DNA of 32,077 bases, taken from contig JAZDFJ010000058.1 in assembly GCA_043807995.1 (NCBI GenBank), positions 1 through 32,077 of the forward strand, read 5' to 3'. Source of the DNA: Candidatus Woesearchaeota archaeon (GTDB lineage Archaea > Nanobdellota > Nanobdellia > Woesearchaeales > JAZDFJ01). Position 1 is the stretch's first letter. The number at the start of each line of letters is the position of its first letter. Below are positions 6,497 through 30,589 of the stretch, in pieces. The notes below the pieces were generated by a model, which was given only the letters and a program-made list of their open reading frames with translations, was not told the DNA's origin and made no database searches. The position numbers and the translations under genes were made by a program.

Positions 6497-7762
6497 CTAT
6501 TTCTCCTTCTTCATCTGCATCTTGGGGTAGGTGCCTGGCTGCATAAATACCCTGCCTGACATGACTGCGATGCCACGCTTATTTTTAAGAATATTCGACG
6601 AGGATTCTTTTGCAGTGCCCACGCACACAAGCTCATTCTTGAGAGTCATCACAGCAACAAGGTCTTCAGGAGCTATTTCAGAATCAAGCTTTGATATCCC
6701 TGGAATGTTTAGGTTTGCGCCGTGGCAGAGGCTGTCGACTGTGCTGTCAAACACCCATATCTTTGGCAGGTGCTCCACGCCCTTTTCTATCGGCATTATC
6801 AGCTTTCTCAGGTATGAGTCGTCATTATTGTTTTTATAGTAATGGATTGCATCTGTGAGGTCCTGGAGCGTGCACAGTGTCGCCTCATTGAAAGGCCCTG
6901 CCTTTGTTCTTCTGAGCTGCACCATATGGGCGCCTCCTGTTTTCTGCCCGAGATCATGCACCCATTTTCTTATGTATGTGCCTGCCTGGCATCCGATGAC
7001 AAACAGCACTTCCCTGTCTTTTTCATTGAAGTCGAGGATTTTTGTGTAATACACGCTTCTCATTCTCCAGTCGCGCTTTACAGCGCTTTTTACAGGCGGA
7101 AGCTGTCTTATCTTTCCTGTCATCTCAGAGAACAGAGCATCGAGGTTTTCCTTGCTTATGTCGCTGTGAAGCTTCATAAGGCAGACATATTCCTTGCCTG
7201 CTGTCAGCAGCTCCTGGGCGATTCTCGTCGCTCCTTCGAGAGCAACAGGCAGCACTCCTGTCACTTTAGGGTCGAGAGTGCCTGAATGGCCGGCCTTGTT
7301 CAGATTGAGTATCTTTCTTACATATGCAGAAACCTGATGGCTTGTCGGGCCTGATGGCTTGTCAATGTTGACTATCCCGCACTGCACAAGCTTTTCTGTG
7401 CTTCTTTTCTCCGGCGAGCATCCATATTTTTCAGACGGCTCCTCTTCCTGCTTCAGAAGCACTCTCTGCACTTTTTTCTCAAATGGCAGGGCGCAGTTTT
7501 CATACTTGAAAACTTTATTGCTGAAGCCGGATAATCCTTTTTCATCTGATTTCCCGCTGTTCATTGTTTTATCTCTATCCATTGTTTTATCTCTTTTCAA
7601 TGTTTTCTCTCCGTCTATTTTATCTCTGCTTATTTCTTCTCTATCTATTTTATCTCTATCTATTTTATCTCTATCCATCTCTTCTCTGTTACCTTTCTTA
7701 AATTTACTTTTTTCTCTAATGCTTTCTTCTTCAGCATCGTTAATTTTAATTTGGTTGACCAT
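6497..7762 (-). CDS. cbf5: H/ACA RNP pseudouridine synthase Cbf5 (TruB family plus PUA) with a repetitive charged N-terminal extension
   Basis: DKPSGPTSHQV and GHSGTLDPKVTGVLPV motifs, and a C-terminal PUA-like region. The first ~65 aa are KIDRDKIDRE-type repeats. Alternative starts are at Met61 and Met67. Confidence 0.9.
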   Translation of the reverse strand: MVNQIKINDAEEESIREKSKFKKGNREEMDRDKIDRDKIDREEISRDKIDGEKTLKRDKTMDRDKTMNSGKSDEKGLSGFSNKVFKYENCALPFEKKVQRVLLKQEEEPSEKYGCSPEKRSTEKLVQCGIVNIDKPSGPTSHQVSAYVRKILNLNKAGHSGTLDPKVTGVLPVALEGATRIAQELLTAGKEYVCLMKLHSDISKENLDALFSEMTGKIRQLPPVKSAVKRDWRMRSVYYTKILDFNEKDREVLFVIGCQAGTYIRKWVHDLGQKTGGAHMVQLRRTKAGPFNEATLCTLQDLTDAIHYYKNNNDDSYLRKLIMPIEKGVEHLPKIWVFDSTVDSLCHGANLNIPGISKLDSEIAPEDLVAVMTLKNELVCVGTAKESSSNILKNKRGIAVMSGRVFMQPGTYPKMQMKKEK

Positions 7763-8774
7763 GTTTTTAACCCTGTAAACCGCATTTTTTTTGGATGTGT
7801 TTTAGTCCTGATTTCAATAAATGTTACATCGATATCAGCACAAATTCATTATTTATTTTAAAACTATTGGTTTTGCCTGGAAAAATACGCTGTTGCGAGG
7901 GAAAAACAGCAAGCCTTTTATAGAATCCTTATCATTACCCTGCTGTTACTAAATCATCGAAACCGGCTGATAACTCGGAATAATGCGTTTTCAGGCTTTG
8001 TCTCTTTCAAGTATCAAACAGGAATTTCTGTGATGCATACTATATTTCGAATCAAAATAATATATATAAACCCGTTGCTATTAAGAAATGATTAATTAGT
8101 GTTTTCAATTATGAGAGATACAATAAATAACTCAATACATAATTATCAGCTGTAAAAATCATAGTCGAGCTTTATCGAAAATATCATGCTTTGGAAACGG
8201 TGGGGTGGTTGAAATCGGGTAACCAGATTATTGCGCTCAATTTGTTTGAGTGCGGTGATCGCTATGCTTAATATTCAACACTGGTGCCGAAGCTCCTAAC
8301 CTCCAGCTTCCTCACCGTTTTCATTCCAATCATAAGCTCATGCAACAAACAGCATGACATCATCAGCTAACATATATCAAAAGCACATCAGACACACATC
8401 ACATTCACTCAATATATAATAGTGGGGGTACACAGAGGTACACTTGGTACATGCAAACAAGCAAAGGCAAACGGCCGAAAAGTGCAAAATGCCTGTTTTG
8501 GCCTTAACAATGCCTGTGCAGTGCCCAGTGTTTCATTGTTTGACACCAAAAAACAAAAATCACATCATTTCACAGTCACTTAGCCTATATTACAGCAAAT
8601 TTGAAACAAAAAAAGCAAACAAAAAGTTTGGCAATAGCATGATTATCGTGTAATATGGGTTTGCATCATACTTCAGGTTAAAGTGACACAAAAAAGGGGC
8701 GGGTGGGGTGTAAAAGCCTCATGCACTGTTGTCCAAGCGGCAACAGGGATTAAACAACACGGAGGTAGGAGAAA

Positions 8775-9875
8775 ATGAAGAAATTATTGGCAATATTGGT
8801 TGCCTTGGTGCTGGTTTTACCGGCAGCTTTGGCAATAAGCGTAGGCGGAGGAATAACTCCTGTTATTGAGACAGAGAACTTTGGACCATTGGTGTGGTTG
8901 TGCGACAACAGGATAGTTATGGACGACGCAGTTGAGTGGGGAAGAGTTTCACTTGATGGCGAAGAAATGTTCGAGAGAATAAACAACTACGCATTTGAAG
9001 GAGAACAAATAGCATGGCTCGTTCTTGTCATGGATAAGAATGGAGTTCCAGAGAAGCTCGATGTCTACGGAGCAATCGGAACAGATCAGGACTTAGACAT
9101 TGATGGCATTGAAGTGAACTGTGAGTACATCGGCGCATTACCGGGAGAGCAGGGAGTTCTGCCAGAATGTAATGCAAGAATCGATGAAGAAATGGTTGAA
9201 TGGAATGGAGAACTCATGGGATACTACCAATGTACTTTGACAGTTGAAACTCCATTATCTATGTACGGAGAGTACTGGGTGACAATCGCAGCAACAGACC
9301 TCGATGATTTAACAGGCACAATGGATGAGAACGAATACTGGTTCTTCAATCCAGTCATTGCATTAAGCATTGACGGCACAATCTCATTTGAGGATGTCAG
9401 GCCAGGAACAGACAGCTACTCAGACACATTGTTATTGACCAACGATGCAGAGGACGGAAGCGGAGTTATGCTTGATATGTTCATATCAGGTACAGACTTC
9501 TACGACTCTTCAAGCAGCGGCGCAATGTGCCCAACAACAAACCAGCTCTCATTGAGCACCTTCAGGTACTTTGCAACAAACGGAGCTTACAGCACCTATG
9601 ATGATCTCGAAGCAGATGATGGGAACTATGACCCAATCACATTAAGAGACTCAGACGTAGAAGGTTATGTCAACATACAGTACGGTGACCACTTTGACAG
9701 AACCATGTACGATGAGGCAGAGATCTTACAGGAGCAGTTAATAGCACCTTACTATGTTGCAAACATTTTAGCACCTGGAGCTGACATGGCCATAACATTC
9801 AAGTTAAGCCTGCCAGAACCATGCAATGGTGACTTCGATACCGGATCATTATACTTCTGGGCAGAAGCCATCTAA
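8775..9875 (+). CDS. Secreted Cys-containing surface protein, paralog 1
   Basis: Signal peptide MKKLLAILVALVLVLPAALA, with GGAGGT SD. Conserved blocks NNYAFEGE, VLVMDKNGVPEK and PEPCNGDFDTGSLYFW are shared with 10377-11531 and 12065-13771. Confidence 0.85.
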   Translation: MKKLLAILVALVLVLPAALAISVGGGITPVIETENFGPLVWLCDNRIVMDDAVEWGRVSLDGEEMFERINNYAFEGEQIAWLVLVMDKNGVPEKLDVYGAIGTDQDLDIDGIEVNCEYIGALPGEQGVLPECNARIDEEMVEWNGELMGYYQCTLTVETPLSMYGEYWVTIAATDLDDLTGTMDENEYWFFNPVIALSIDGTISFEDVRPGTDSYSDTLLLTNDAEDGSGVMLDMFISGTDFYDSSSSGAMCPTTNQLSLSTFRYFATNGAYSTYDDLEADDGNYDPITLRDSDVEGYVNIQYGDHFDRTMYDEAEILQEQLIAPYYVANILAPGADMAITFKLSLPEPCNGDFDTGSLYFWAEAI

Positions 9876-10290: not shown

Positions 10291-10376
10291 TTCAAAAATA
10301 CCAACAGCATAATATTTACCCGAAGCAAAACAAGCATACAAAAAAGCGGTGAAGAAATGTATAGAGGGTGGGCGAA

Positions 10377-11531
10377 ATGAATAAGAACAGCAGATCCGGC
10401 TTTAATGCCAGACCAATAATAAACAAGCTCTTTTGCTTGATTAGTTTGTTCTGTGCAATAATAATATTAACTCCTTTTGCGCATGCAATTGACGTTGGCG
10501 CAGACATGGATTTAGATGTTGAAGTTGAAAACTTTTCTCCATTAGTGTGGATGTGCGGACACAGAGAGGTTTATGATGACAATATTGAATGGGGGAGATT
10601 TGTTGAACCGGCTCCCGACCGTGACGTGCTTCTCGAGAGAGTGAATAACTATGCATTCGAAGGAGAGGCTGTAAGGATATATGTATTGGTCATGGACAAG
10701 AACGGAGTGCCTGAAAAGATAAGAGATGTTTATGCAACACTTGGCACAACTCAGGGAGCTGGAAACGATATAGAGGTAAACTGCGTATTCAGGGATGATA
10801 TTGACGTGATAGTCGAGTCATGCAATGCAGAAATAGATGAGGAAGAGCTGGAGGAGTTCGACCCTGAGATAATGGCATACTACGAGTGCATCTTCACTGT
10901 CGAGACACCATTGTCCATGTACGGAGAATACTGGCTGACAGTTGAGGCTGAAGACATTGACGGCTTATTAGGCACAATCGATGAAAATGAATACTGGTTT
11001 TTCAATCCGGTTATTGCAATAAGCATCGACGGCACACTCTCGTTTGAGGATGTCAGGCCAGGAACAGACAGCTACTCAGACACACTGCTGATTTCCAATG
11101 ATGCAGATGACGGCAGCGGGGTTATGCTTGATATGTTTATATCAGGTACAGACTTCTACGACTCTGCAAACAGCGGCGCAATGTGCCCGACAACAAACCA
11201 GATTGCACTGAGCAGTTTCAGGTACTTTGCAACAAACGGAGCTTTCAGCACCTATGATGACATGGAGGTTGATGTCAACACTTATGACCCTGTAACAATA
11301 AGGGATTCAGATGCAGAAGGTTATGTCAACATACAATACGGTGACCACTTTGACAGGACAATGTATGACGAGGCAGAGATACTCCAGCAGGACTATATTG
11401 CACCGTACTATGTTGCAAACATACTGGCTCCTGGAGCTGACATGGCATTGACATTCAAGTTAAGCCTGCCAGAACCATGCAATGGTGACTTCGATACCGG
11501 ATCATTATACTTCTGGGGAGAGGCCATCTAA
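10377..11531 (+). CDS. Secreted Cys-containing surface protein, paralog 2
   Basis: GAGGGTG SD before ATG 10377; the ORF track starts at GTG 10368. It has a hydrophobic signal segment ending AHA. The C-terminal ~215 aa are about 85% identical to paralog 1. Confidence 0.85.
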   Translation: MNKNSRSGFNARPIINKLFCLISLFCAIIILTPFAHAIDVGADMDLDVEVENFSPLVWMCGHREVYDDNIEWGRFVEPAPDRDVLLERVNNYAFEGEAVRIYVLVMDKNGVPEKIRDVYATLGTTQGAGNDIEVNCVFRDDIDVIVESCNAEIDEEELEEFDPEIMAYYECIFTVETPLSMYGEYWLTVEAEDIDGLLGTIDENEYWFFNPVIAISIDGTLSFEDVRPGTDSYSDTLLISNDADDGSGVMLDMFISGTDFYDSANSGAMCPTTNQIALSSFRYFATNGAFSTYDDMEVDVNTYDPVTIRDSDAEGYVNIQYGDHFDRTMYDEAEILQQDYIAPYYVANILAPGADMALTFKLSLPEPCNGDFDTGSLYFWGEAI

Positions 11532-11600: not shown

Positions 11601-11612
11601 TTTTAATTTTTT

Positions 11613-11703
11613 TAATTTTCATGATTTAATTTTTTTAATTTTCATGATTTAATTGTTTAATTTTCATGATTTAATTTTTTTAATTTTCATGATTTAATTT
11701 TTT
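11613..11703. repeat. Tandem repeat, ~22-nt unit TAATTTTCATGATTTAATTTTT, 4 copies
   Basis: Read directly from the sequence, in the spacer after paralog 2. Confidence 0.85.
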
Positions 11704-13877: not shown

Positions 13878-13980
13878 TAATACACAACAGGAATACATAA
13901 CAGAAATACACAACAGGAATACATAACAGAAATACACAACAGGAATACATAACAGGAATACATGACAGAAATATATAACA
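13878..13980. repeat. Tandem repeat with 13/26-nt unit AATACACAACAGG AATACATAACAGA
   Basis: About 8 units of 13 nt read directly. It creates a spurious minus-strand ORF (13803-14171). Confidence 0.85.
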
Positions 13981-15647: not shown

Positions 15648-16087
15648 TGAGAGCTGCAATGCGCTTGGGCTCAAGAATCAGGAAATCAGTTGAAGATCCT
15701 GAATTTGAAACAATCAGAGGAGAACATAATAAAATAGTTGACTTCAGAGTAGCAGCTTATTCAAACGATCAACAAATTCGACCCAGAAACTACTTTGAAG
15801 AACTTTCAGCGGAATTCAATCCAAAAACATCTGATCCTGATCCGTGCCCGAGATTCAGATACAGAGCTCTAATAATCAACCTTTATTCGGGAGAAACTGA
15901 AAAAGAAGCCATTAAAGAGCTGAGGGATGCAGTTAATAGGGCGATTCCGTTTGCCTGGAGGCATCAAGCTCTTATTGACACCAGAGCAGCAGGATTTGTC
16001 TACGGCCCGGCCACTGCTGATGTGCTGGCGGGTATAGACCGCAAGTCAATCGATGACCTGCTGCAAAGCGGAGCTCTTATCTTTTAG
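15647..16087 (+). CDS. Hypothetical protein (146 aa), translationally coupled to 15189-15647
   Basis: ATG at 15647 shares a base with the upstream TAA. The ORF-track start at 15539 is probably too far upstream. Confidence 0.6.
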   Translation: MRAAMRLGSRIRKSVEDPEFETIRGEHNKIVDFRVAAYSNDQQIRPRNYFEELSAEFNPKTSDPDPCPRFRYRALIINLYSGETEKEAIKELRDAVNRAIPFAWRHQALIDTRAAGFVYGPATADVLAGIDRKSIDDLLQSGALIF

Positions 16088-16254
16088 TCTTATTTTTTTA
16101 TATTGTATTTTTTATGTTATATCTTTTATATTGTATCTTTTTTATTACATCTTTTATATTATCCTTTGCATCCCTTATATTCTTTACAATACTTCCACAA
16201 ATTTTATATAAGTGCATTTCAATCAATAAACAGATTAAACATGCTGGTGAAACC

Positions 16255-16863
16255 ATGGATGAAAACAATGTTAGAGAGCCTTCAAAGGATTCAATGAACG
16301 GAACTGCCGACGAGTATTTTGAGCTTGTGCTTAGAGCAAGACCTGATTTCAGAGAGCTGAACAATGCAATAGAGCAGGCTGCACAGATAATAGCGAGCTG
16401 TTTCAAGAACGGCGGCAAGGTCCTTATATGCGGAAACGGCGGAAGCGCTGCTGACGCACAGCATATTGCAGGAGAGCTTGTTGTCAGGTATTTCAGGGAG
16501 AGAAAAGCCTATCCTGCAATAACATTGTCAGCTGACAGCTCTGTGATGACTGCATGCAGCAACGACTATGGCTATGAACATGTGTTCAAAAGGCAGGTCG
16601 AGGCATTGGGGAAAAAAGGCGATGTCCTAATAGGAATAAGCACTAGCGGGAGCTCCCCGAATGTTGTTCACGCTGTCGAGTATGCAAAGCAGAACAGCAT
16701 CTATACTATTGGATTGCTTGGAAAAAAAGGCTGCAAACTTGCAGGCATGGTTGACACTGCAATATGCATAGAATCAGGGATTACGCCCATAATCCAGATA
16801 TGGCACAGCATTGCTTATCATTCTCTGTGCCACAGAATCGAGATATTGATGGAACAGAGCTGA
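16255..16863 (+). CDS. gmhA: Phosphoheptose isomerase (SIS domain)
   Basis: VLICGNGGSAADAQHIAGELV and GISTSGSSPNV motifs. The start was moved to ATG 16255 because the upstream 47 codons are translated AT-rich repeat. Confidence 0.85.
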   Translation: MDENNVREPSKDSMNGTADEYFELVLRARPDFRELNNAIEQAAQIIASCFKNGGKVLICGNGGSAADAQHIAGELVVRYFRERKAYPAITLSADSSVMTACSNDYGYEHVFKRQVEALGKKGDVLIGISTSGSSPNVVHAVEYAKQNSIYTIGLLGKKGCKLAGMVDTAICIESGITPIIQIWHSIAYHSLCHRIEILMEQS

Positions 16864-16905: not shown

Positions 16906-17247
16906 TCATACATTTTTTTCCGGCTGAACCTGCTCTTTAGGCAGCACAGGCGCGAGATATGCGGAAATATAAGCATAAAATCTATCCCCAGCAGGTCCTG
17001 TTCTTTCTGTAAAAACCATAACATCATAGGGACATGAGCCATCCTGAAATCTGCCTGAAAAAACAGTCAGTCCAAATGGATTCCCGCCTCTGGTAAAACC
17101 TGCCTGCAAAAATCTTTCCGCTGGTAAAGCTGTGCTAGGCGCTTGAGTTAAGATAAGTCTTGCAATATCTTCTGGAAATAATTCATGCACTAAATCTATT
17201 TGTTCCTCATCAGAAAGCCTTGAATTGGTTGTTGTCAAAAATGGCAT
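16906..17247 (-). CDS. Hypothetical protein (113 aa), last gene of the orphan operon
   Basis: CAGGAGAA SD. Codon usage matches the operon. There is only a weak, unasserted resemblance to SUKH/SMI1-type immunity proteins (ELFPEDIARLIL). Confidence 0.6.
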   Translation of the reverse strand: MPFLTTTNSRLSDEEQIDLVHELFPEDIARLILTQAPSTALPAERFLQAGFTRGGNPFGLTVFSGRFQDGSCPYDVMVFTERTGPAGDRFYAYISAYLAPVLPKEQVQPEKNV

Positions 17248-17341
17248 TTTTCATTCTCCTGTTTTATCCTGTTTTTATGAGCTTATTTTGCTGAATCAGC
17301 ATGAAAATCAAAAATCGATTTTCTATAAAAATTTTACGATT

Positions 17342-17614
17342 TTAGTCTGCGCTTCTGTCGCTTGAGTACCCGTCTCTGTCATGCCATCCGTCATCTCCAT
17401 GATAAGCTCCATGGCCTTTTTGTTCGCTGCCTTTGAGATGAATAATCTCGCCATCACCGAACGGATGGGCTGTTGAAGCGCCAAATTCAGAAAGAATAGA
17501 GGCTAACATTCTGAGCTCACCGCCTACTAAACTCCCTAAGCGCCTAATGCGCGACAAAAAAGAGCCTGATTGAGGCTGAACTGTTTGCGCTTGTTCATAT
17601 TTATCAGATACCAT
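17342..17614 (-). CDS. Hypothetical protein (90 aa; 96 aa if started at 17632) with a His/Asp/Gly-rich C-terminus
   Basis: GGAGGA SD lies 8 nt before ATG 17614. That ATG overlaps the end of the upstream gene (AATGGTATCTGA). Confidence 0.55.
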   Translation of the reverse strand: MVSDKYEQAQTVQPQSGSFLSRIRRLGSLVGGELRMLASILSEFGASTAHPFGDGEIIHLKGSEQKGHGAYHGDDGWHDRDGYSSDRSAD

Positions 17615-18197
17615 TAAAATCATCCTCCGCATTCTGATGCTGCCACAAATCGAGGCACCTTTGCGCTGTATTCAAAGCACCTGCTAAATCATACAAAACC
17701 ATTACTGCATCATACGCGAGTTTTGCCACTGATTCTGCACGCGAATCTGTAAGCCTATTTACTCCAATGCAAAGATGTTCTGCAAGTCTTTGAGGAGAAT
17801 AAACATTTCCAAATACACTCTGGCTGCGCACACGTGATATTATTTTAGAATCAGCTGTTAATGGTCCCCCTGCAGAACGTCTTTGCGGCAAAAACAAGGT
17901 GACCTCTCTGCCATCCTGACCAATGTATTGGATATTTAATTCTCTCCTTGCAGGATTTTCTTCTATCCGAACACTAGCGCATGATTCAGCCACACCTGGT
18001 TCAGTGGCAGCATAAAATATGCCTGCAATAAAATCATTAATCTCTATAGTCAATTCCTGCCGCAATCCAGCTGTGTCAGTGCCTGGCTCTAGCCTTCTTG
18101 CCCTGTCAGCCAAATCACGCAGGCCAGGCTTTTCGGCTCTGGCTGCATCTGCACTCGAAGTATCAAATCCTGATTCGATTGTTATATCATCTGTCAT
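17604..18197 (-). CDS. Hypothetical protein (197 aa), paralog of 18753-19544
   Basis: GGGGTGAT SD. Starts MTDD (an alternative ATG lies 2 codons upstream at 18203). The LADRARRLE motif sits at the same offset as MADKARRLL in the 263-aa protein. Confidence 0.65.
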   Translation of the reverse strand: MTDDITIESGFDTSSADAARAEKPGLRDLADRARRLEPGTDTAGLRQELTIEINDFIAGIFYAATEPGVAESCASVRIEENPARRELNIQYIGQDGREVTLFLPQRRSAGGPLTADSKIISRVRSQSVFGNVYSPQRLAEHLCIGVNRLTDSRAESVAKLAYDAVMVLYDLAGALNTAQRCLDLWQHQNAEDDFNGI

Positions 18198-18220
18198 TTT
18201 CATATCACCCCGTCTAAACT

Positions 18221-18727
18221 CTATCTTGGAACCAGATTTATGCCATAAGTATTAAGCAATTCCTGCAATGCATTAGGCGAACACATTTGTCTTTTTGCGT
18301 CTCCAATGGCTGTCATTAATACAGCAACATATTCGCTGATTCGCCTTTCTTTTCCTGAACAGGAACTGGGCAATCCATCTGAAGAAACAAAATGAACAAT
18401 ACCTGGAGAAGTTCCCATCTTTAATACCTGAAAGCCGGCGCGTGCCATCGAGCCTGCAGCCAAAACTGCGATATTCGCGGCGCTAACAAACGATTCAGTA
18501 GTTTGAGGATATGCGATTCCAGGATTTTCCAAATCTCGGTTCACATACAGCGCTGATCTGACTATTCTTCCTTTGGCGTTTGGAATGTCAACAACGCAAT
18601 CCAAAAGGCCATCTCTCTTGCCTATCCTTCTTAAATGTGCAGTATGGATTAAGCCGTATTGAACTGCAAGCGAACCAGCCAATTGCACCAATCTTAGATC
18701 TTTTTCTTCTCCTAGTGAATATGCCAT
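18221..18727 (-). CDS. Hypothetical protein (168 aa)
   Basis: TAGGAGGAC SD. No TM segment and no recognisable motif. Confidence 0.65.
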   Translation of the reverse strand: MAYSLGEEKDLRLVQLAGSLAVQYGLIHTAHLRRIGKRDGLLDCVVDIPNAKGRIVRSALYVNRDLENPGIAYPQTTESFVSAANIAVLAAGSMARAGFQVLKMGTSPGIVHFVSSDGLPSSCSGKERRISEYVAVLMTAIGDAKRQMCSPNALQELLNTYGINLVPR

Positions 18728-18752
18728 TTTTGTCCTCCTAAAAAAATATTAT

Positions 18753-19544
18753 CTATCTTATGCGAAATCTTTCTTTGCTTAACGCAAGCCTGGTATCTGC
18801 AATCTCTTCAATTGCTGATTTAGGTTTTTCCCCAACCCCAAGCGCTTTTCTCAGTGCTTCAAGCTGGTGCTCAAAAGCAGTATGACCTGCAGAGCCTCTT
18901 GACTTTAATTCCCCAGTTTTTGCAGTGACTTCTGCTGCTGTCTGCACAAGAGCTGCTCCAAGAGCTTCTCTCATGGCAAGCAGGCCTTCGTAAGCAGTTA
19001 CAGGGCCGTATGTTTTGCCTGGTTCTGCTTCAGGAGCAGGTTGTTCAACTCCGGGAGCAATAGATCGTAAAAGATGCATTACAAAGTTATCTTGCGTACA
19101 TGCAGAATAATTATCAAAGCTGCTTTGTTCACCGAGCGTTCTGCTAATCTCACCTTCTCTTATATCTATTAGCGAACCTCTGGGCTGGTATGAAAAAGAA
19201 ACATATCTGCCAGGTGTGACTCTAGATGCACAAACATTTGTGATTTCAGTCCCGTTTCCATATTTATAGACAGCCAATTGAACACCACCAAATCTGCGCA
19301 GAGTCTCTTGTTTCGGATCTGCCCTGTCTGCATAAGCTGCAAGAGCAGTTGCTGCGGTCTTTATGTCGGTGAGCAACAAATCAACTTGCTCGTGGACTTC
19401 TTCCTGTGATTCTGCTGCAGAACCCAATAATCTTCTTGCTTTGTCTGCCATTGATTCTGATTCTAACTCAACACCTTCTGGAAACATTCCGTCTATTTCA
19501 TTGCTTGCAATTCGCAATTCTGTTTGATAAGCATCATCTGTCAT
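18753..19544 (-). CDS. Hypothetical protein (263 aa), paralog of 17604-18197
   Basis: AAGGAGGAA SD. Starts MTDD. Acidic N-terminus, a beta-rich middle and a helical C-terminus. Confidence 0.7.
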   Translation of the reverse strand: MTDDAYQTELRIASNEIDGMFPEGVELESESMADKARRLLGSAAESQEEVHEQVDLLLTDIKTAATALAAYADRADPKQETLRRFGGVQLAVYKYGNGTEITNVCASRVTPGRYVSFSYQPRGSLIDIREGEISRTLGEQSSFDNYSACTQDNFVMHLLRSIAPGVEQPAPEAEPGKTYGPVTAYEGLLAMREALGAALVQTAAEVTAKTGELKSRGSAGHTAFEHQLEALRKALGVGEKPKSAIEEIADTRLALSKERFRIR

Positions 19545-19611
19545 TTTTCTATTCCTCCTTTATAATCATATATAATCAATATTTGAAAATAATAAAATAA
19601 AAAAAATTATT

Positions 19612-22600
19612 TTATGCTGCCAATGGCTGCTGTACAGTCCTTCCTGCATAAGCTGCGACCCTTTGCTCCAATCCTTGCTTAAACCTTATGCTGTCGTCGC
19701 CAAGCACTCCTCTTATCACTTTGAGCCTCTTGTACACTGTTGATTCGCTGCAGCTCATACCATTCTCAGTAAGCTTTTTTGCCGCTTCCTTTGCAGTCAT
19801 TCCCTGCTTTACAACTCCATTGCTGTCAAAGACTGCATTGTAAGTTGCTTCAAGGTCTACCGCATACTTTGAATTTATTCTCTTGCCGTGACTTGACTGG
19901 TAAGCATTGTATGCATTGCTGATACCGCCTGTTTGCGCAAGCGCCTGATAGTATGCATTGTCTCTGTATCCTGTTGCTGCTGGCTTTGATGCAATTCCTT
20001 TTAACTTGTCTGCTGCCTCGATAACCATGTTTGTTGTTGCTGTTACTTCCAATGAACTGACTTGCTCTTCACTGTTGTCGTCATCTACAATTGCATCAAT
20101 GCTCGGCGCAGTATTGTATGCAACACTTGGCCTGACAATTGCTAATTTTAACTTGTAAGCAGGTGCTCCTCGTGAGTATGCAGCTGGCTCTGTTGTTTTA
20201 GGTGCTGGGGTTTCTGCCGGTGCAGGCGGGTTTCCTGCTCCTGCGCTTTCAGCTACTGATACTGGAGTGTCTGCTAATGCAGGTGCTTCTGCTGGTGGAA
20301 TTTGACTCTCTGTTTCATCTCTGTCTCTGCCGCCATTTCCTGGACCATTGTTGTCTGGGGTTGGTATTTCAGGTCCTTCTGCTCCTGTCCTGCGGAATCG
20401 TCTTTTCAATGCTCTGATGCCTTTGTAAGCTCCCACGGATACACCCGCAAGTACTCCTGCCGCTCCAACACAAAACGGAGAGCCCAGATATTTATTAAAA
20501 TCCTTATTTTCAGTATCATCAAGAAAATCAACTGTTCTGCCGTCAGATAGTGTTGTAACTCCATCGCCAGTCCAATAATCTTTCCAAACTGCGCAAACAT
20601 CCTTCACATAATCCGCAACCCCGTTGGCTGCATCAGCAACTCCATGACCTGCCTTGGCAAAGATGTTGCCGTCTCCTGAGCTTGTTGTGTCGCGAACAGC
20701 ACTTGTTACTGTATCAACAACTGCTTTTGCTGCTGCACTACTGTCTGCAGGTGTATTTGCAACAACTGCTTCAAGCGATGGCTTGTGGTTGGAGAGTCCA
20801 TCTTTTATTGCATTGAAAAACCCTTCAATGTCAAAGTCTTTCATGTTCTGTATTGGGTGCTGCACTGCTGAAGCAATGTATTTCAAGATATGCTCTGGAA
20901 TCTTTGAAGCTTCCTGGTTGAATTTATGGAGAGACTCTGATCCGTTCCATTTCATAAAGTTTATCAAGTTCTCTGCGTAATTGATGTAACCACTAACAAT
21001 CTCTTTCGCAGAGTCTAAACTGGTTTTATTAGCATTCATTGCTTCAATCTGAGCCCGGAGATTACTTTGAATATCCTGGAGCCCATAAATCCTGTCTTCG
21101 AATGGCTTTCTCATGACACTCAAATCAACAGAGCCCTGGTCTAATCTGAATAGGTGCGGATTTCCATTGACATTCGCAAGGTGTCCATTCTGTCCTTTGA
21201 CATACTCAAGCCCCTGCTTTGCAGCTTCTTCTAAAGTTATTTTGCTATTATCCTGAAGAACTGCGTTTACAAGATCTTTTATATTGTGAATGCCCGAACC
21301 AAACTGCTCATAGCTGAAGCCACTGCCCTGCAGTTTTCTCAACTCAGAAACAGCCTGCTGGACTTCGCGCCATGCAGAGCTTCCTCTTTCAAGAGTTCCT
21401 GTCAATTTTGATGTTGCATCAGTTAAGCTCTGGATTTCCCTGCTGTTAGCATGTAAATCTCCAGAAACAGCAGTTAAAGCTTTTTGTGCTGCATCAATCT
21501 GCTGTTCAAGCTGTGAATACGCTTTATTCATCTGGCCTAATGCTGCCTGGCTTTGCTGTGTTGCTTCTGCTATCTGCTTATTGCCATGTTCACCTAATAG
21601 ATAATAGGCAGCGATTCCTGCTGCAACAAGCCCTGCTGATACTCCGATGCAGGTTTTGTGTCTATCAATAAAGCCTCCTTTCTGATACCATTTCCTTGAT
21701 TGGTCTGGTGTGTTCCCAGCTCCTTCTGTTGTTTCACTGCCGCCGGTTGTGCCATTTGCACCATCCGTGCCTTTTGGCGGTATAGGAGTTTCGCCTGCTG
21801 GTGCAGATGAATCTGTTGGTGTTGCAGCAACATATCCTTCTGTTGTTGCTTCTTCTAATGATTTTACATCTGCTTTTGCAGCTCTTCTTTGAGCTCTAAA
21901 TTGTGAAAATCTCCTGAAAGGATTTCTTCCTGTGTATGCCTGGTTTGCACTTTCGCCAACTCCTTGCACTTCTCCGGAAGCTGTTTCGCTAGAAGCAACC
22001 AAGCCTTGCTCTTGTTCAAATTGTTCTATGGCGCTTTCCAAAGCTTTGTGAACTTGACTGGCTCTTTTTCTTTCACGCCCACCCGTATAACCTGGCTCTT
22101 CAGAGAGAACTTCTCGTGCCATTCTTGCAATTTCTTGTGGTGAAATTCGTGAAATTCGTCCACCAACTCTCTTAAAATCATATAGAAAATCATCAGGCAG
22201 ATATTTTGGCTCTATCCTATCTTCACCTGTTACAAGGCCTTCCACCCAACCTCTAACAATTCTTCCAAAAGATTGCACTCTGTCATCTGTGGTTTCTGCT
22301 GAACCTGCTTCTTCCGCCACTGGCGGAGATGAAATCTGAGGTTCACCGGCTCCATCACGATAAGATGGAGATACTGCTTCTCCGCCTGTTGTTGGTACAC
22401 CTATACTAGGCGAATCTAAAACTCTGACTTCCAAATCAGGCTGTCTGTCTGCTGGCCTTTCTGCTTCTGTTTTCGGTGCTTCAATTCTTGTGCGTCTCAG
22501 TACATCTGCAACTTCATCATGGCCTTTTCGTGCATCTGTCGGATTAGGAATTCCAGCTCTTCTCAGTGCTTCTGCAGCACCATTATGATAATTACGTCCA

Positions 22601-22716
22601 ATATCGTCTTTTGTTACCTCACCAGTTATTGGAGCTCTAAGCATATCGTCTCCCATTTCGCTCACCTCTCGTATTAATTTTTCAGCCTGTCTTTCTCTAT
22701 CATCAGAACCTGTCAT
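19612..22716 (-). CDS. Large two-pass membrane protein (1034 aa; 1036 if started at 22722) with a helical exo-domain and C-terminal HTH-like segment
   Basis: AAGGAGG SD. TM helices at about aa 358-376 and 749-768 (numbered from 22722), each with K/R clusters on the outer flanks. That implies an N-in/C-in topology and a ~370-aa external coiled-coil-rich domain. P/A/T/G-rich linkers are present. The C-terminal MTAKEAAKKLTENGMSCSESTVYKRLKVI resembles a sigma70-region-4/LuxR-type HTH. Confidence 0.8.
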   Translation of the reverse strand: MTGSDDRERQAEKLIREVSEMGDDMLRAPITGEVTKDDIGRNYHNGAAEALRRAGIPNPTDARKGHDEVADVLRRTRIEAPKTEAERPADRQPDLEVRVLDSPSIGVPTTGGEAVSPSYRDGAGEPQISSPPVAEEAGSAETTDDRVQSFGRIVRGWVEGLVTGEDRIEPKYLPDDFLYDFKRVGGRISRISPQEIARMAREVLSEEPGYTGGRERKRASQVHKALESAIEQFEQEQGLVASSETASGEVQGVGESANQAYTGRNPFRRFSQFRAQRRAAKADVKSLEEATTEGYVAATPTDSSAPAGETPIPPKGTDGANGTTGGSETTEGAGNTPDQSRKWYQKGGFIDRHKTCIGVSAGLVAAGIAAYYLLGEHGNKQIAEATQQSQAALGQMNKAYSQLEQQIDAAQKALTAVSGDLHANSREIQSLTDATSKLTGTLERGSSAWREVQQAVSELRKLQGSGFSYEQFGSGIHNIKDLVNAVLQDNSKITLEEAAKQGLEYVKGQNGHLANVNGNPHLFRLDQGSVDLSVMRKPFEDRIYGLQDIQSNLRAQIEAMNANKTSLDSAKEIVSGYINYAENLINFMKWNGSESLHKFNQEASKIPEHILKYIASAVQHPIQNMKDFDIEGFFNAIKDGLSNHKPSLEAVVANTPADSSAAAKAVVDTVTSAVRDTTSSGDGNIFAKAGHGVADAANGVADYVKDVCAVWKDYWTGDGVTTLSDGRTVDFLDDTENKDFNKYLGSPFCVGAAGVLAGVSVGAYKGIRALKRRFRRTGAEGPEIPTPDNNGPGNGGRDRDETESQIPPAEAPALADTPVSVAESAGAGNPPAPAETPAPKTTEPAAYSRGAPAYKLKLAIVRPSVAYNTAPSIDAIVDDDNSEEQVSSLEVTATTNMVIEAADKLKGIASKPAATGYRDNAYYQALAQTGGISNAYNAYQSSHGKRINSKYAVDLEATYNAVFDSNGVVKQGMTAKEAAKKLTENGMSCSESTVYKRLKVIRGVLGDDSIRFKQGLEQRVAAYAGRTVQQPLAA

Positions 22717-22907
22717 TTTCATATCCTCCTTTGCATCCTTTTTTTGGTCTATAATAATAATTGTATGTTATTACTCAATAATAGGTATGTTTAAGTATTT
22801 AAATCTTTCGTTTTTGTCACCACTACGGGATAACAAATCGACTTCAGAGAGAAACATTTATAAACTATTACAAATTAACAATAACATTATTGCAAAAAAA
22901 CAATAAA

Positions 22908-23495
22908 ATGAAAAACTACTTGAAAATAATCAATTTCCTGCTCGACAACAGGAAAGAATCCTTCAGCATAAACCAGATAGCTAAAAGCCTAAGCATGAAT
23001 TACAGGACAGCATTCGAGGAAATCAAAAAACTCGAAACAGAGCAAACCATAAAGATAAAAAAGATAGCAAACTCAAACCAATGCACATTAAACAGCACTC
23101 TCAGCCCAAAGATTTTCGAGGCAGAACATCTCAGGACCGAGAATCTTCTGAAAAACAAAAACATCAAAGTGCTGAGCAGGCATCTTGATAATCTAAACCG
23201 GATGTTTTTCATCTCTCTTATATTCGGCTCTCATGCAAAACAGCAAATAAACAATAATTCAGATATCGACCTGTGCATAATCACAGATGACAATGAATTT
23301 AAAGCACAGGCAGAGCAAACCGCAAGAATTCTGCCTTTAAGCATTCATTTTTTCGGATTCACATCCAAAGAATTTATGAGCATGCTTGAAACAGCAAAGC
23401 CCAATGTAGGAAAAGAGATTGCAAACAGCAACATAATCTTAAGCGGGATAGAGGAATTTTACAAGCTGATTCAATGCTCGACAAGAAACGGATAA
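22908..23495 (+). CDS. wHTH plus minimal nucleotidyltransferase (MNT-type) protein
   Basis: The N-terminal FSINQIAKSLSMNYRTAFEEIKKLE is winged-helix-like. The NTase signature GSHAKQQINNNSDIDLCIITDD is present. ATG 22908 is preferred over TTG 22890. Confidence 0.7.
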   Translation: MKNYLKIINFLLDNRKESFSINQIAKSLSMNYRTAFEEIKKLETEQTIKIKKIANSNQCTLNSTLSPKIFEAEHLRTENLLKNKNIKVLSRHLDNLNRMFFISLIFGSHAKQQINNNSDIDLCIITDDNEFKAQAEQTARILPLSIHFFGFTSKEFMSMLETAKPNVGKEIANSNIILSGIEEFYKLIQCSTRNG

Positions 23496-23618: not shown

Positions 23619-23711
23619 ATGAAAGCTATTATTTTTAATGATAAAGACAATTCTGACAGAAGTTTGAATAGATTAAATAAGAACAGAGACATTTCTAGCC
23701 TCAGATTCTGG
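23619..23711 (+). pseudogene. Putative N-terminal fragment of the NYN/LabA-like gene (MKAIIFNDKDN...)
   Basis: IIFNDKDN aligns with the first-strand NYN signature (hhFhDxxN). The frame runs into the 166-bp element and stops at 23751. Deleting 23712-23877 joins it in frame to 23878. Confidence 0.4.
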
Positions 23712-23877
23712 AAAATAACAAAAATTTGCTGCTCAGCGCCATCCCCGGCCTAAAGGCACGGGGTTTTCACGCGCCTCGCTAAAATGCAAATTTTTGGAAT
23801 AGCAAATTTCGACCTGAAGGTCGGGGTATTCATCATCCCCAAGCAATTTCTTCCAGAGGGCGAAATTTCCTATAAAG
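23712..23877 (+). mobile_element. 166-bp structured repeat element, copy A
   Basis: About 90% identical to 30415-30577 in the same orientation. Multiple internal stems are present, and two of them carry compensatory differences between the copies. Confidence 0.8.
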
Positions 23878-24606
23878 TTGCTTCATAAATACATATTTGA
23901 AAAAGTTGAAAGCCTGATTAAAGAGCAATGTCATTGTTTAGAACTGAGCAAAACATTAATTTACACAGGCGAATATAATGTCAAAGCGCTTACAAATGTT
24001 AAAAAAAGCTGCGGTTCGAAAATTAAAGAGATGAATGAGCTTATCACTAAAGAAAATCTGCTATTAGAAAAAGTTAATTCTATTAAAGGATATGACGAAC
24101 TAAAAAAAGATGTTTTAGAACACGTAAATTCAATAAGAAGCGTATTTGAATCAATAAGACAGTCTAACATAGAAGCTATAGCAAAGCAGAACAAAAATGC
24201 ACAAGCACAATCAAATTTCTTTGAATATGTCAAGAATAAACTAAGATTTTCTGAAGTAAGAACAACCCCATTAGTAACACGCGGCGGAAGAATTCAGCAA
24301 AAAGGGGTAGATGCTAAATTCTCAACTGACTTAATATTATTAGCGCAGGCAAATGCATATGATGTGGGCATATTGCTAACAGGAGATGCAGATTTAAAAG
24401 AATCGATTAGATTAGTAAGAGAAAGATATGGCAAAATCATTATATCTGTAGCATACTATGAAGCAGATGAAAGCAAGAGAATTTGGAATACAATCAGCGA
24501 GGATCTAATAAAGGAATGTGACTATTTTATTAATCTTGCAGATTTCTCAGAAAATGAAATAGAGAAAATATCAGTCAAAAAAACGCATTTCCCGAAACAT
24601 TTATAA
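23878..24606 (+). CDS. NYN/LabA-like ribonuclease domain protein, body (possibly a disrupted gene)
   Basis: QQKGVDAKFSTDLILLAQANAYDVGILLTGDADLKESIRLV matches the NYN core (GVD...D...GD.D). The ORF has only a TTG start with no SD. The first in-frame ATG is codon 52. Confidence 0.6.
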   Translation: MLHKYIFEKVESLIKEQCHCLELSKTLIYTGEYNVKALTNVKKSCGSKIKEMNELITKENLLLEKVNSIKGYDELKKDVLEHVNSIRSVFESIRQSNIEAIAKQNKNAQAQSNFFEYVKNKLRFSEVRTTPLVTRGGRIQQKGVDAKFSTDLILLAQANAYDVGILLTGDADLKESIRLVRERYGKIIISVAYYEADESKRIWNTISEDLIKECDYFINLADFSENEIEKISVKKTHFPKHL

Positions 24607-29674: not shown

Positions 29675-29696
29675 AGTGATTAATAACAATCAAGAC

Positions 29697-29705
29697 TATT
29701 TAAAC
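29697..29705 (-). promoter_or_regulatory. TATA box (TTTAAATA on the minus strand) for the PRT-like gene
   Basis: Its spacing to ATG 29674 fits archaeal leaderless transcription. Confidence 0.45.
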
Positions 29706-29935
29706 TTTTCTATTTTGTTACCACTATCAAGATACGATAACAACTAAAAATTAACGCCAAAGCCCCTAACTACTAAAACTGAAAAAAACATAAAAAACTT
29801 GAAAATTAGCCCCCGACTCTAAACTAAACACTCCTTGCGGAGAACTAATCGAAAAAGTGAAAATCCGACTTCCTCGCTACGCCCGAACCCCACTGCGCTC
29901 TCGCTCCATGAGAATTATTTTTAATGATTTCAAGT

Positions 29936-30379
29936 TTAAAAGGTATGCCATGGACCTGAAACAATTTTTTTTGCTTCTTCGTTGTTTGTTCCTAGTTTCT
30001 CTAGATTCCATGGCACTAAAAATGGAGGGACAAACTCACGCCACCGATCTTCAAATAAGCTTTCCAATTGAAATGGAACTAACGTTCTTTGTCCAACTAA
30101 GCTAGGTATAAATAAAATCGCTTTTGCAAAAGTCTGTTCAAGTCCAATTTTCATTGCATAAGCCAAACACATTTTTTCCTTTTCAGAATCTTCACACTTT
30201 CTTTCCCCCAGATGTCCTCTTTGTAAATCTTCAATTATCTGGTATAGTTCGGTGTCAAGCATGCGATAACATAAAACATGATTGTCTCTGCAAAACTCCT
30301 CAGCCAGCCCTGCTATGTGAATTGACGATTTTATTACCTGTTCTTCTAGAGAACAATCGCTGCTTTCTCGGAATGGCAA
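29936..30379 (-). CDS. Hypothetical protein (147 aa), possibly all-alpha
   Basis: Clean ORF upstream of the PRT-like cassette. A weak MazG-like EE..E/E..ED pattern (IAGLAEEF, ELYQIIEDL) is noted but not asserted. Confidence 0.5.
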   Translation of the reverse strand: MPFRESSDCSLEEQVIKSSIHIAGLAEEFCRDNHVLCYRMLDTELYQIIEDLQRGHLGERKCEDSEKEKMCLAYAMKIGLEQTFAKAILFIPSLVGQRTLVPFQLESLFEDRWREFVPPFLVPWNLEKLGTNNEEAKKIVSGPWHTF

Positions 30380-30414
30380 ATGAATCAGTAAAACTCCCTG
30401 ATTCTTATCTTGTA

Positions 30415-30577
30415 AAATAACAAAAATTCGCTGCTCGGCGCTATCCCTGGCCTAAAGGCGCAGGGTATTTACGCGCCTCGCTTAAAGGCGAATTTTTGGA
30501 ATAGCAAATTTCGACCTGAAGGTCGGGGTATTCATCATCCCCCGGCAATTTCTCCAGAAGTCGAAATTTCCTATAAG
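30415..30577 (+). mobile_element. Structured repeat element, copy B (partner of 23712-23877)
   Basis: Intergenic, ending 12 nt before the amrS ATG. The differences from copy A include paired compensatory changes. Confidence 0.8.
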
Positions 30578-30589
30578 ATCCAAGGAAGC

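Follow-up and report, generated by a model that had tools for sequence, protein, structure and literature searches.

A lineage-restricted cluster of six orphan genes around a predicted two-pass membrane protein in a Woesearchaeota contig

The 32,077-nt contig JAZDFJ010000058.1, part of a metagenome-assembled genome (MAG) of Candidatus Woesearchaeota and analyzed here over its entire length (the window), includes six open reading frames (ORFs), named g1 to g6, that follow one another in the same orientation on the minus strand, from nucleotide 16906 to 22722. The results described below support well the view that they are a genuine, intact, lineage-restricted accessory gene set around the two-pass membrane protein encoded by g1. 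The best explanation, to which we assign a probability of about 0.35, is that of an orphan accessory cluster acting as a scaffold or sensor in the membrane, with a DNA-binding arm tethered to it, and its mechanistic part is proposed with low confidence. The cluster is a cleanly delimited and well-controlled case of genomic dark matter, consisting of six intact genes that include one for a 1034-amino acid (aa) protein. If functional, it would represent a complete multi-protein membrane module without a relative among approximately 15 billion sequenced proteins, in a group, the DPANN archaea, for which the molecular basis of interactions with other cells and with viruses is almost unknown. It has also been found a single time, in an organism that is not in culture and in a type of genome where orphan clusters are common, and it makes no question directly testable now.

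Coding evidence and orphan status of the six genes

The six genes (Table 1) are separated by spacers of 67 nt (g1-g2), 25 nt (g2-g3), 17 nt (g3-g4) and 94 nt (g5-g6), while g4 and g5 share an 11-nt overlap, ATGGTATCTGA, in which the start of g5 overlaps the stop codon of g4. A previous examination of the letters, made by a model and called here the sequence-only reading, had described six minus-strand genes with these sizes and gaps, a Shine-Dalgarno site for each and one overlapping junction, and the ORF list and the sequence confirmed the description; each of the six Shine-Dalgarno strings that it named precedes its start codon by 5-8 nt. The longest ORF on the opposite strand of the region does not exceed 108 aa. 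When each gene was evaluated with a leave-one-out codon model derived from the remaining five, the annotated frame was the top of the six frames in every case, and a codon model based on the host core genes gave the same result (6/6). NCBI protein annotation exists for g1, g2, g3, g4 and g6. An ORF of 1034 codons in DNA of 44% GC cannot be attributed to chance, and all six ORFs are genuine protein-coding genes. Residue numbers of g1 refer to the 1034-aa form unless stated; the scans of full-length g1 against Pfam, PHROGs, NCBIfam and PADLOC, the hydropathy analysis and the phmmer query followed 1036-aa ORF numbering, in which positions are shifted by 2.

The six proteins and three fragments of g1 were compared with Pfam, PHROGs, NCBIfam and PADLOC, and the comparisons returned only coiled-coil noise, sub-threshold helix-turn-helix (HTH) matches and one weak PHROGs match. 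The latter pairs aa 554-717 of g1 with the tape-measure family phrog_1272 (E 1.4e-5, 24 bits) and spans profile positions 940-1082 (143 of 1606) in a helical, low-complexity, coiled-coil-like region; the tape-measure families of Pfam and NCBIfam gave no match to g1. Using PADLOC-DB v2, only coiled-coil noise was found for g1 (LmuB, JetC and ZorA, E values from 4e-4 to 0.3) and no match was found for g2-g6. A word-indexed search of 5.8 billion clusters with g1 and g3 retrieved only these proteins themselves. An exhaustive phmmer search (E ≤ 0.001) against 1.84 billion representatives, which stand for approximately 15 billion proteins, was made with a concatenated query of 1185 aa (residues 1-265 and 860-1036 of the g1 ORF, g2, g3, g4 and g6), and the only matches were the five query proteins themselves. 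Nothing was recovered by sequence searches of the PDB (for g2, none at E 10), by tblastn and distant blastn searches of phage and plasmid collections, by pattern scans of IMG/VR and JGI metagenomes, or by an exact look-up of g2 in a contig index. The sequence-only reading could not assign the products to any family and saw no ATPase, nuclease, integrase, capsid or transporter signature; the profile, PDB and homology searches agree with the former statement and the profile libraries with the latter.

The specificity of this result was controlled with o10368 (nucleotides 10368-11531), a gene from the same contig whose product also has no Pfam domain. More than 1,147 homologs were found for it, with 56-65% identity, spanning Pace-, Woese-, Nano- and Aenigmarchaeota, and the contigs that carry its closest relatives have different neighborhoods, with surface proteins. 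Hypothetical-protein families of DPANN archaea are usually shared within phyla (PMC8204110). Because the control has this many homologs, the cluster genes count as orphans within a database of good DPANN coverage, and their orphan status is due partly, not wholly, to poor sampling. The ribosomal protein S12 and RpoA'' of the contig are both singletons at 90% identity, and therefore probably no close relative of the organism has been sequenced. With no homologs and no conserved synteny anywhere, the cluster falls into the category to which the sequence-only reading would have demoted it in such a case, a lineage-specific orphan of unclear significance.

Predicted products and expression signals

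The hydropathy profile of g1 peaks at aa 358 and 746 (1036-aa ORF numbering), defining two putative transmembrane (TM) segments, TM1 and TM2. The flank ahead of TM1 (aa 341-355) is RKWYQKGGFIDRHKT, with a net charge of +4, and the flank after TM2 (aa 763-780) is AYKGIRALKRRFRR, with a net charge of +6. Since these flanks are expected to remain inside according to the positive-inside rule, g1 is predicted to be a two-pass membrane protein that forms an N-in/C-in hairpin with its loop outside the cell. Hydropathy and flank charges both support the two-pass topology that had been proposed before.

The N-terminal arm includes low-complexity linkers, Pro/Glu/Ser-rich and Thr/Gly-rich, between and after its two helical stretches, and no Pfam match was found for it even at E 10. 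The ectodomain has heptad-like Ala/Gln/Ser-rich stretches and is all-helical in a low-confidence AlphaFold2 prediction; only coiled-coil noise was found for it in Pfam, NCBIfam and PADLOC. An Ala/Pro/Glu-rich linker of 112 aa (aa 781-892) joins TM2 to the C-terminal basic domain, which is the best-predicted part of the AlphaFold2 model, yet reaches a predicted local distance difference test score (pLDDT) of only 51-66. Five HTH-type Pfam families converge on approximately aa 970-1003 within this domain: HTH_20 (E 0.031), FUR (0.05), HTH_30 (0.1), HTH_32 (0.16) and HTH_Tnp_Tc3_2 (0.2). Their scores are 12-15 bits against cut-offs of 23-34, so that none reaches the gathering score. The HTH-like tail mentioned in the sequence-only reading is consistent with this convergence, but all of the matches are sub-threshold (E 0.03-0.2), and a real HTH is plausible at this location.

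Structure modeling had also been suggested as a check. The single-sequence AlphaFold2 model of g1 has a mean pLDDT of 40.7 and an all-helical secondary structure, and that of a concatenate of g2-g6 has a mean pLDDT of 35.3. A Foldseek comparison of the g1 model with the PDB gave a best E value of 1.1. These models are informative for secondary structure only.

The soluble proteins encoded by g2-g6 include neither a hydrophobic segment nor a signal peptide, and all of them are acidic except g3. The g2 protein is soluble with helix-rich ends; g3 and g4, also soluble, share a predicted order of helix, three strands and helices, taken from the low-confidence model; g5 contains an amphipathic helix and a His/Asp/Gly-rich tail; and g6 is soluble. 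The existence of an internal paralog pair, part of the earlier description, was not borne out: in an all-versus-all comparison no pair among g2-g6 exceeded shuffled controls over the full length (z ≤ 0.34), and full-length paralogy was rejected on this basis. Over their first 45 residues, g2 and g4 show a weak likeness (MTDD...AD[KR]ARRL, z 2.0-2.4), with a score that is reached by 34-46 of 1000 shuffles; the AD[KR]ARRL motif common to both is located at approximately residue 30 (ADRARRL in g4). A 20-nt 5' end and an MT(GS)DD start are common to g1, g2 and g4, and despite this likeness the N-terminus of g1 has no similarity to g2 or g4.

Table 1. Location of the cluster genes, of the predicted features of g1 and of the genes next to the cluster
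Feature	Coordinates	Strand	Size or residues	Remarks
TATA-box-like element	22796..22803	-		TTTAAATA; ~80 nt upstream of g1 start
g1 ORF	19612-22722	-	1036 aa	from ATG at 22722
g1 as annotated by NCBI	19612-22716	-	1034 aa	from second ATG at 22716; hypothetical protein V1659_02555
g1 predicted N-terminal cytoplasmic arm	21652..22716	-	aa 1-355	from composition and the low-confidence AlphaFold2 model; two helical stretches
g1 predicted TM1	21595..21651	-	aa 356-374	CIGVSAGLVAAGIAAYYLL; Kyte-Doolittle 19-residue maximum 1.88
g1 predicted ectodomain	20488..21594	-	aa 375-743	369 residues; net charge -13
g1 predicted TM2	20431..20487	-	aa 744-762	LGSPFCVGAAGVLAGVSVG; Kyte-Doolittle 1.57; Gly-rich, GxxxG-like spacing
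g1 C-terminal basic domain	19615..20040	-	aa 893-1034	142 aa; net charge +7
g1 HTH-like motif	19708..19809	-	~aa 970-1003	GMTAKEAAKKLTENGMSCSESTVYKRLKVIRGV; sub-threshold HTH-family matches
g1-g2 spacer	19545..19611	-	67 nt	12% GC
g2	18753-19544	-	263 aa	P0003
g3	18221-18727	-	168 aa	V1659_02545
g4 ORF	17604-18203	-	199 aa	
g4 as annotated	17604-18197	-	197 aa	P0004
g5 ORF	17342-17632	-	96 aa	
g5 from ATG at 17614	17342-17614	-	90 aa	
g6	16906-17247	-	113 aa	P0005
gmhA	16255-16863	+		sedoheptulose-7-phosphate isomerase; convergent with g6
HTH-nucleotidyltransferase gene	22890-23495	+		divergent from g1
NYN protein gene	23878-24606	+		follows the nucleotidyltransferase gene

The element TTTAAATA is located within the 167-nt divergent spacer that is common to g1 and the HTH-nucleotidyltransferase gene and, judged by the archaeal TATA consensus, is a putative promoter. 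The g1-g2 spacer includes, in this order, a run of eight T residues (T8) right after the g1 stop codon, the TATA-like sequence TTATATAT approximately 30 nt before the g2 ATG, and the Shine-Dalgarno sequence AAGGAGGAA; it may function both as a terminator and as a promoter inside the cluster. The 94-nt g5-g6 spacer is AT-rich and contains TTTTTATAG and T-runs. Archaeal genes are transcribed from TATA-type promoters and transcription can end at oligo-T stretches. Because these T-runs and TATA-like elements are found in the spacers, the cluster may be organized as three units, g1, g2-g5 and g6, and not as one operon. In view of the spacer motifs, the single transcript implied by the sequence-only reading is doubtful. 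The sites that it called bacterial-style translation signals are there, but GGAGG or GAGGTG sites are also found before the host-typical genes o8775, o10368, o12065 and o24658, so they are not special to the cluster; other genes of the contig look leaderless behind a TATA box. Since Shine-Dalgarno sites are native to this archaeon, they are uninformative about the origin of the cluster.

Codon usage, neighborhood and interpretation of the cluster

The contig is chromosomal archaeal DNA, as it carries rpoA'/rpoA'' and the genes for L30e, NusA, S12, Cbf5, MetAP and a radical-SAM protein. Compared to the core genes, whose G+C content at third codon positions (GC3) is about 0.5, the cluster genes have a GC3 of 0.27-0.40 together with high values at the first and second positions. 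Their products contain 8-13% Ala (6% in g5) and 2-5.5% Lys, versus 7-12% Lys in those of the core genes. The differences extend to the share of individual codons, namely GAA for Glu (0.77 in the cluster, 0.40 in core genes), CAA for Gln (0.45 and 0.13), TTT for Phe (0.85 and 0.48), CGN for Arg (0.26 and 0.07) and TTA plus TTG for Leu (0.51 and 0.19). A leave-one-out log-likelihood placed all six genes in the atypical codon class (positive in 6/6). The same class includes o15189, o15647, the NYN protein gene, o25053 and o29042, which are interleaved with host-typical genes. The contig as a whole holds two interleaved codon classes, that of the core genes with GC3 of about 0.5 and an AT3-rich one with GC3 of 0.24-0.40.

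A recent foreign origin was considered and is not demonstrated: the tetranucleotide correlation of the cluster with the rest of the contig (r 0.88) is not an outlier, since the values for other 5.8-kb windows extend from 0.83 to 0.95, and the atypical genes are dispersed. Profile scans and tRNA and repeat searches of the window found no integrase, no tRNA and no flanking direct repeats. The codon pattern is thus compatible with an old acquisition or with weak codon selection in accessory genes, and either fits.

The cluster is located between genes of an accessory character (Table 1). On one side is gmhA, which encodes a bacterial-type GmhA whose closest relatives among GTDB species representatives are all bacterial, at no more than 54% identity; this suggests a transfer from a bacterium to a DPANN archaeon. 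The start of the long gmhA ORF, at 16114, lies within an AT-rich repeat and is probably spurious. On the other side, the HTH-nucleotidyltransferase shows a full-length match to PDC-M05A (E 3e-14) and a match to MntA, no HEPN partner is present, and the NYN protein encoded next to it matches HEC-09 (E 1.6e-7). PDC-M05, a nucleotidyltransferase plus a HEPN protein, is a toxin-antitoxin-like candidate defense system that is enriched in Archaea and has not been validated (PMC12988326). By adjacency in this single genome, the cluster is part of an accessory region with the flavor of a conflict system.

In the mechanism that we tentatively favor, g1 would be a membrane scaffold that exposes its acidic, all-helical loop of 369 residues at the cell surface and carries two cytoplasmic arms on long, flexible, low-complexity linkers. 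The C-terminal basic domain, with its HTH-like motif, might be able to bind nucleic acid. The products of g2-g6 would be cytoplasmic partners that dock on the arms, those of g2-g5 probably being co-translated as a unit. Working as a strain-specific envelope sensor or anchor, the cluster would link something at the cell surface to DNA binding by a tethered domain, and its location would be a variable region in which toxin-antitoxin and defense-like genes abound. The results speak neither for nor against the roles proposed in the sequence-only reading, namely an envelope or host-contact apparatus, a membrane-signaling module or a mobile-element-borne function.

This model brings g1 close to membrane-tethered one-component regulators, chemoreceptors and sensor kinases, with which it has in common positively charged hairpin flanks, a large helical extracytoplasmic loop and a cytoplasmic HTH-like motif. 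As expected of a membrane-bound HTH regulator, the motif is predicted from hydropathy and flank charges to be anchored on the cytoplasmic side. On the other hand, g1 has no above-threshold sensor, HAMP, kinase, MCP-signal or HTH domain and no sequence relationship to these proteins, and its 355-aa N-terminal cytoplasmic arm and linkers of approximately 60-110 aa are unusual. The EsaA/YueB/PIP-type proteins of type VII secretion in Gram-positive bacteria may resemble g1, as they are also membrane proteins of approximately 1000 aa with a long helical ectodomain and small soluble helical neighbors. They have 1+5 TM segments, whereas g1 has two and an archaeal host; no EssC/FtsK-type ATPase, WXG100 protein or EssB of a type VII secretion system was found among the ORFs of the window. 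The cluster can also be compared to widespread hypothetical families of DPANN archaea, such as module 98 (Castelle et al. 2021, PMC8204110), which are likewise uncharacterized and found in Woesearchaeota, and a symbiosis-related role is possible. Such families are shared across Pace- and Woesearchaeota, a pattern that the control gene o10368 follows, unlike the cluster proteins, which have no homologs.

Several observations weigh against the scaffold or sensor model. The HTH of g1 lies below every curated threshold, its TM2 is only borderline hydrophobic (1.57), and the AlphaFold2 models of g1 and g2-g6 are unusable. Owing to the T8 run and the TATA-like elements between g1 and g2 and before g6, the six genes may be transcribed as two or three separate units, and there is no evidence that g2-g6 are physically tied to g1. 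A GC3 at or below the intergenic G+C content of the contig (0.36) could reflect weak or no selection on expression. Without homologs, neither the function nor the unity of the six genes is supported by conservation, covariation or synteny.

As an alternative, the cluster could be integrated cargo or a remnant of a virus or another mobile element, either a tape-measure-like virion or tail module or a plasmid-derived HTH membrane protein. The atypical codon usage relative to the core genes and the toxin-antitoxin and defense-like neighbors would agree with such an origin, and orphan genes are typical of archaeal viruses. The weak partial match of aa 554-717 to phrog_1272 points in the same direction, as g1 resembles tape-measure proteins in being approximately 1000 aa long and helical and in having Gly-rich hydrophobic segments. 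However, the match covers a small part of the profile, and a tape measure would not be expected to have the N-in/C-in topology and cytoplasmic arms predicted for g1. No tail tube, tail chaperone, distal tail, capsid, portal, terminase, packaging ATPase, integrase or replication gene is present in the 32-kb window, which is also devoid of tRNAs and flanking direct repeats, and the phage, plasmid and IMG/VR searches were empty. The tetranucleotide composition falls within the range of the contig, and the genes with atypical codons are interleaved with typical ones and do not form one island. We consider this origin unlikely, albeit the strongest of the competing explanations.

With g1 as effector or sensor and the smaller proteins regulating it, the genes would form a new antiviral or conflict system within a small defense island, a role that appears improbable as well. 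It draws on the neighbors described above, a nucleotidyltransferase matching PDC-M05A and MntA followed by an NYN protein of RNase fold with its HEC-09 match, and on the enrichment of PDC systems in DPANN archaea, which lack most classical defense systems (PMC12988326). The particular codon style of the cluster and its absence from all other sampled genomes also suggest an accessory element. Yet this is guilt by association from two neighbors in a single genome, both PDC-M05 and HEC-09 are candidates that still await validation, and the nucleotidyltransferase has no HEPN partner. The likeness to PDC-M05 and HepT-MntA belongs to the divergent neighbor and not to the cluster: no cluster protein matches either component, adjacency being the sole link, none of the six proteins (0/6) matches PADLOC, and none has an enzymatic or nucleotide-binding domain.

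Similarly improbable is that the genes are highly diverged members of known families, for example a fusion of an HTH with a two-TM sensor of the chemoreceptor or histidine kinase type, or a polymorphic toxin accompanied by immunity genes. The succession of a TM segment, a helical ectodomain and a second TM segment is found in many sensors, the basic C-terminal domain of g1 is followed by small acidic proteins, and many orphans prove to have known folds. No profile match to a sensor, signaling, toxin or immunity family was obtained, though, and the structure models are too poor to bear on this possibility.

A more novel version of the scaffold or sensor model is that of a membrane-spanning apparatus not seen before, in which the helical domain at the surface would be coupled mechanically or allosterically, within a single polypeptide, to the tethered DNA-binding domain and to dedicated cytoplasmic partners, serving as a sensor of contact with the host of this presumed symbiont or as a new membrane-based antiviral system; no sequenced organism would have a relative of it. 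We regard it as quite improbable; formally the cluster is unlike anything known, but it is so by default, through absence of evidence. Equally doubtful is that the ORFs are non-functional or decaying DNA, being young, poorly expressed or in the process of being lost and without a joint function: the cluster has been seen once in all public data, its GC3 is what would be expected without codon selection, the low-complexity linker1, linker2 and linker3 take up approximately a quarter of g1 and AlphaFold2 confidence is very low, but the 1034-codon ORF and the five others are all intact, Shine-Dalgarno sites are well spaced in front of every gene, one junction has the layout for translational coupling, the coding signal is frame-specific in 6/6 genes, and selection on the proteins is implied because their Ala/Arg/Gly-rich composition opposes the AT-rich third positions.

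Other features of the contig

The control gene o10368 and o8775 (nucleotides 8775-9875), both on the plus strand, are tandem paralogs that are 70% identical and have no Pfam domain. Relatives of this family adjoin Big_13, LTD and TSP3 surface proteins, and the family is probably a major conserved uncharacterized surface protein of DPANN archaea.

Short-period tandem arrays are found in intergenic regions. An array of ten copies of AAAACAAAAAAGA (nucleotides 2039-2171) separates rpoA' from rpoA''; the others include eight copies of AATACAYAACAGR (13879-13980), six copies of a 14-nt unit upstream of gmhA (16078-16162) and 4.5 copies of a 23-nt unit (11602-11703). Tandem repeats of 15-18 nt also encode the DRDKI-like repeats that make up an N-terminal extension of approximately 85 aa (7500-7762, minus strand) in the Cbf5 ORF. 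This extension is either a real low-complexity tail or the result of a start called too far upstream.

Two stretches of the contig, 7763-8774 (1012 nt) and 29690-30589 (900 nt), have no assigned gene in the gene list and are of an unusual length for gaps in a small DPANN genome. The tRNA and Rfam searches of the window, including these stretches, gave no match; short ORFs are found within them at 8444-8653, 8750-8986 and 29857-30420.

A repeated element of approximately 170 nt is present in two copies in the same orientation (plus strand), at 23709-23877 and 30411-30580, that are 87% identical and share an identical 45-nt core. One copy ends at the start of the NYN protein gene and the other is located just before the AmmeMemoRadiSam radical-SAM gene. 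No Rfam match was found for this repeat, and a pattern based on its stem was absent from the scans of JGI metagenomes and IMG/VR. RNAalifold predicted a structure of 48 pairs with -49 kcal/mol and two compensatory changes. The repeat is a candidate for a structured 5' leader, a small RNA or a miniature mobile element.

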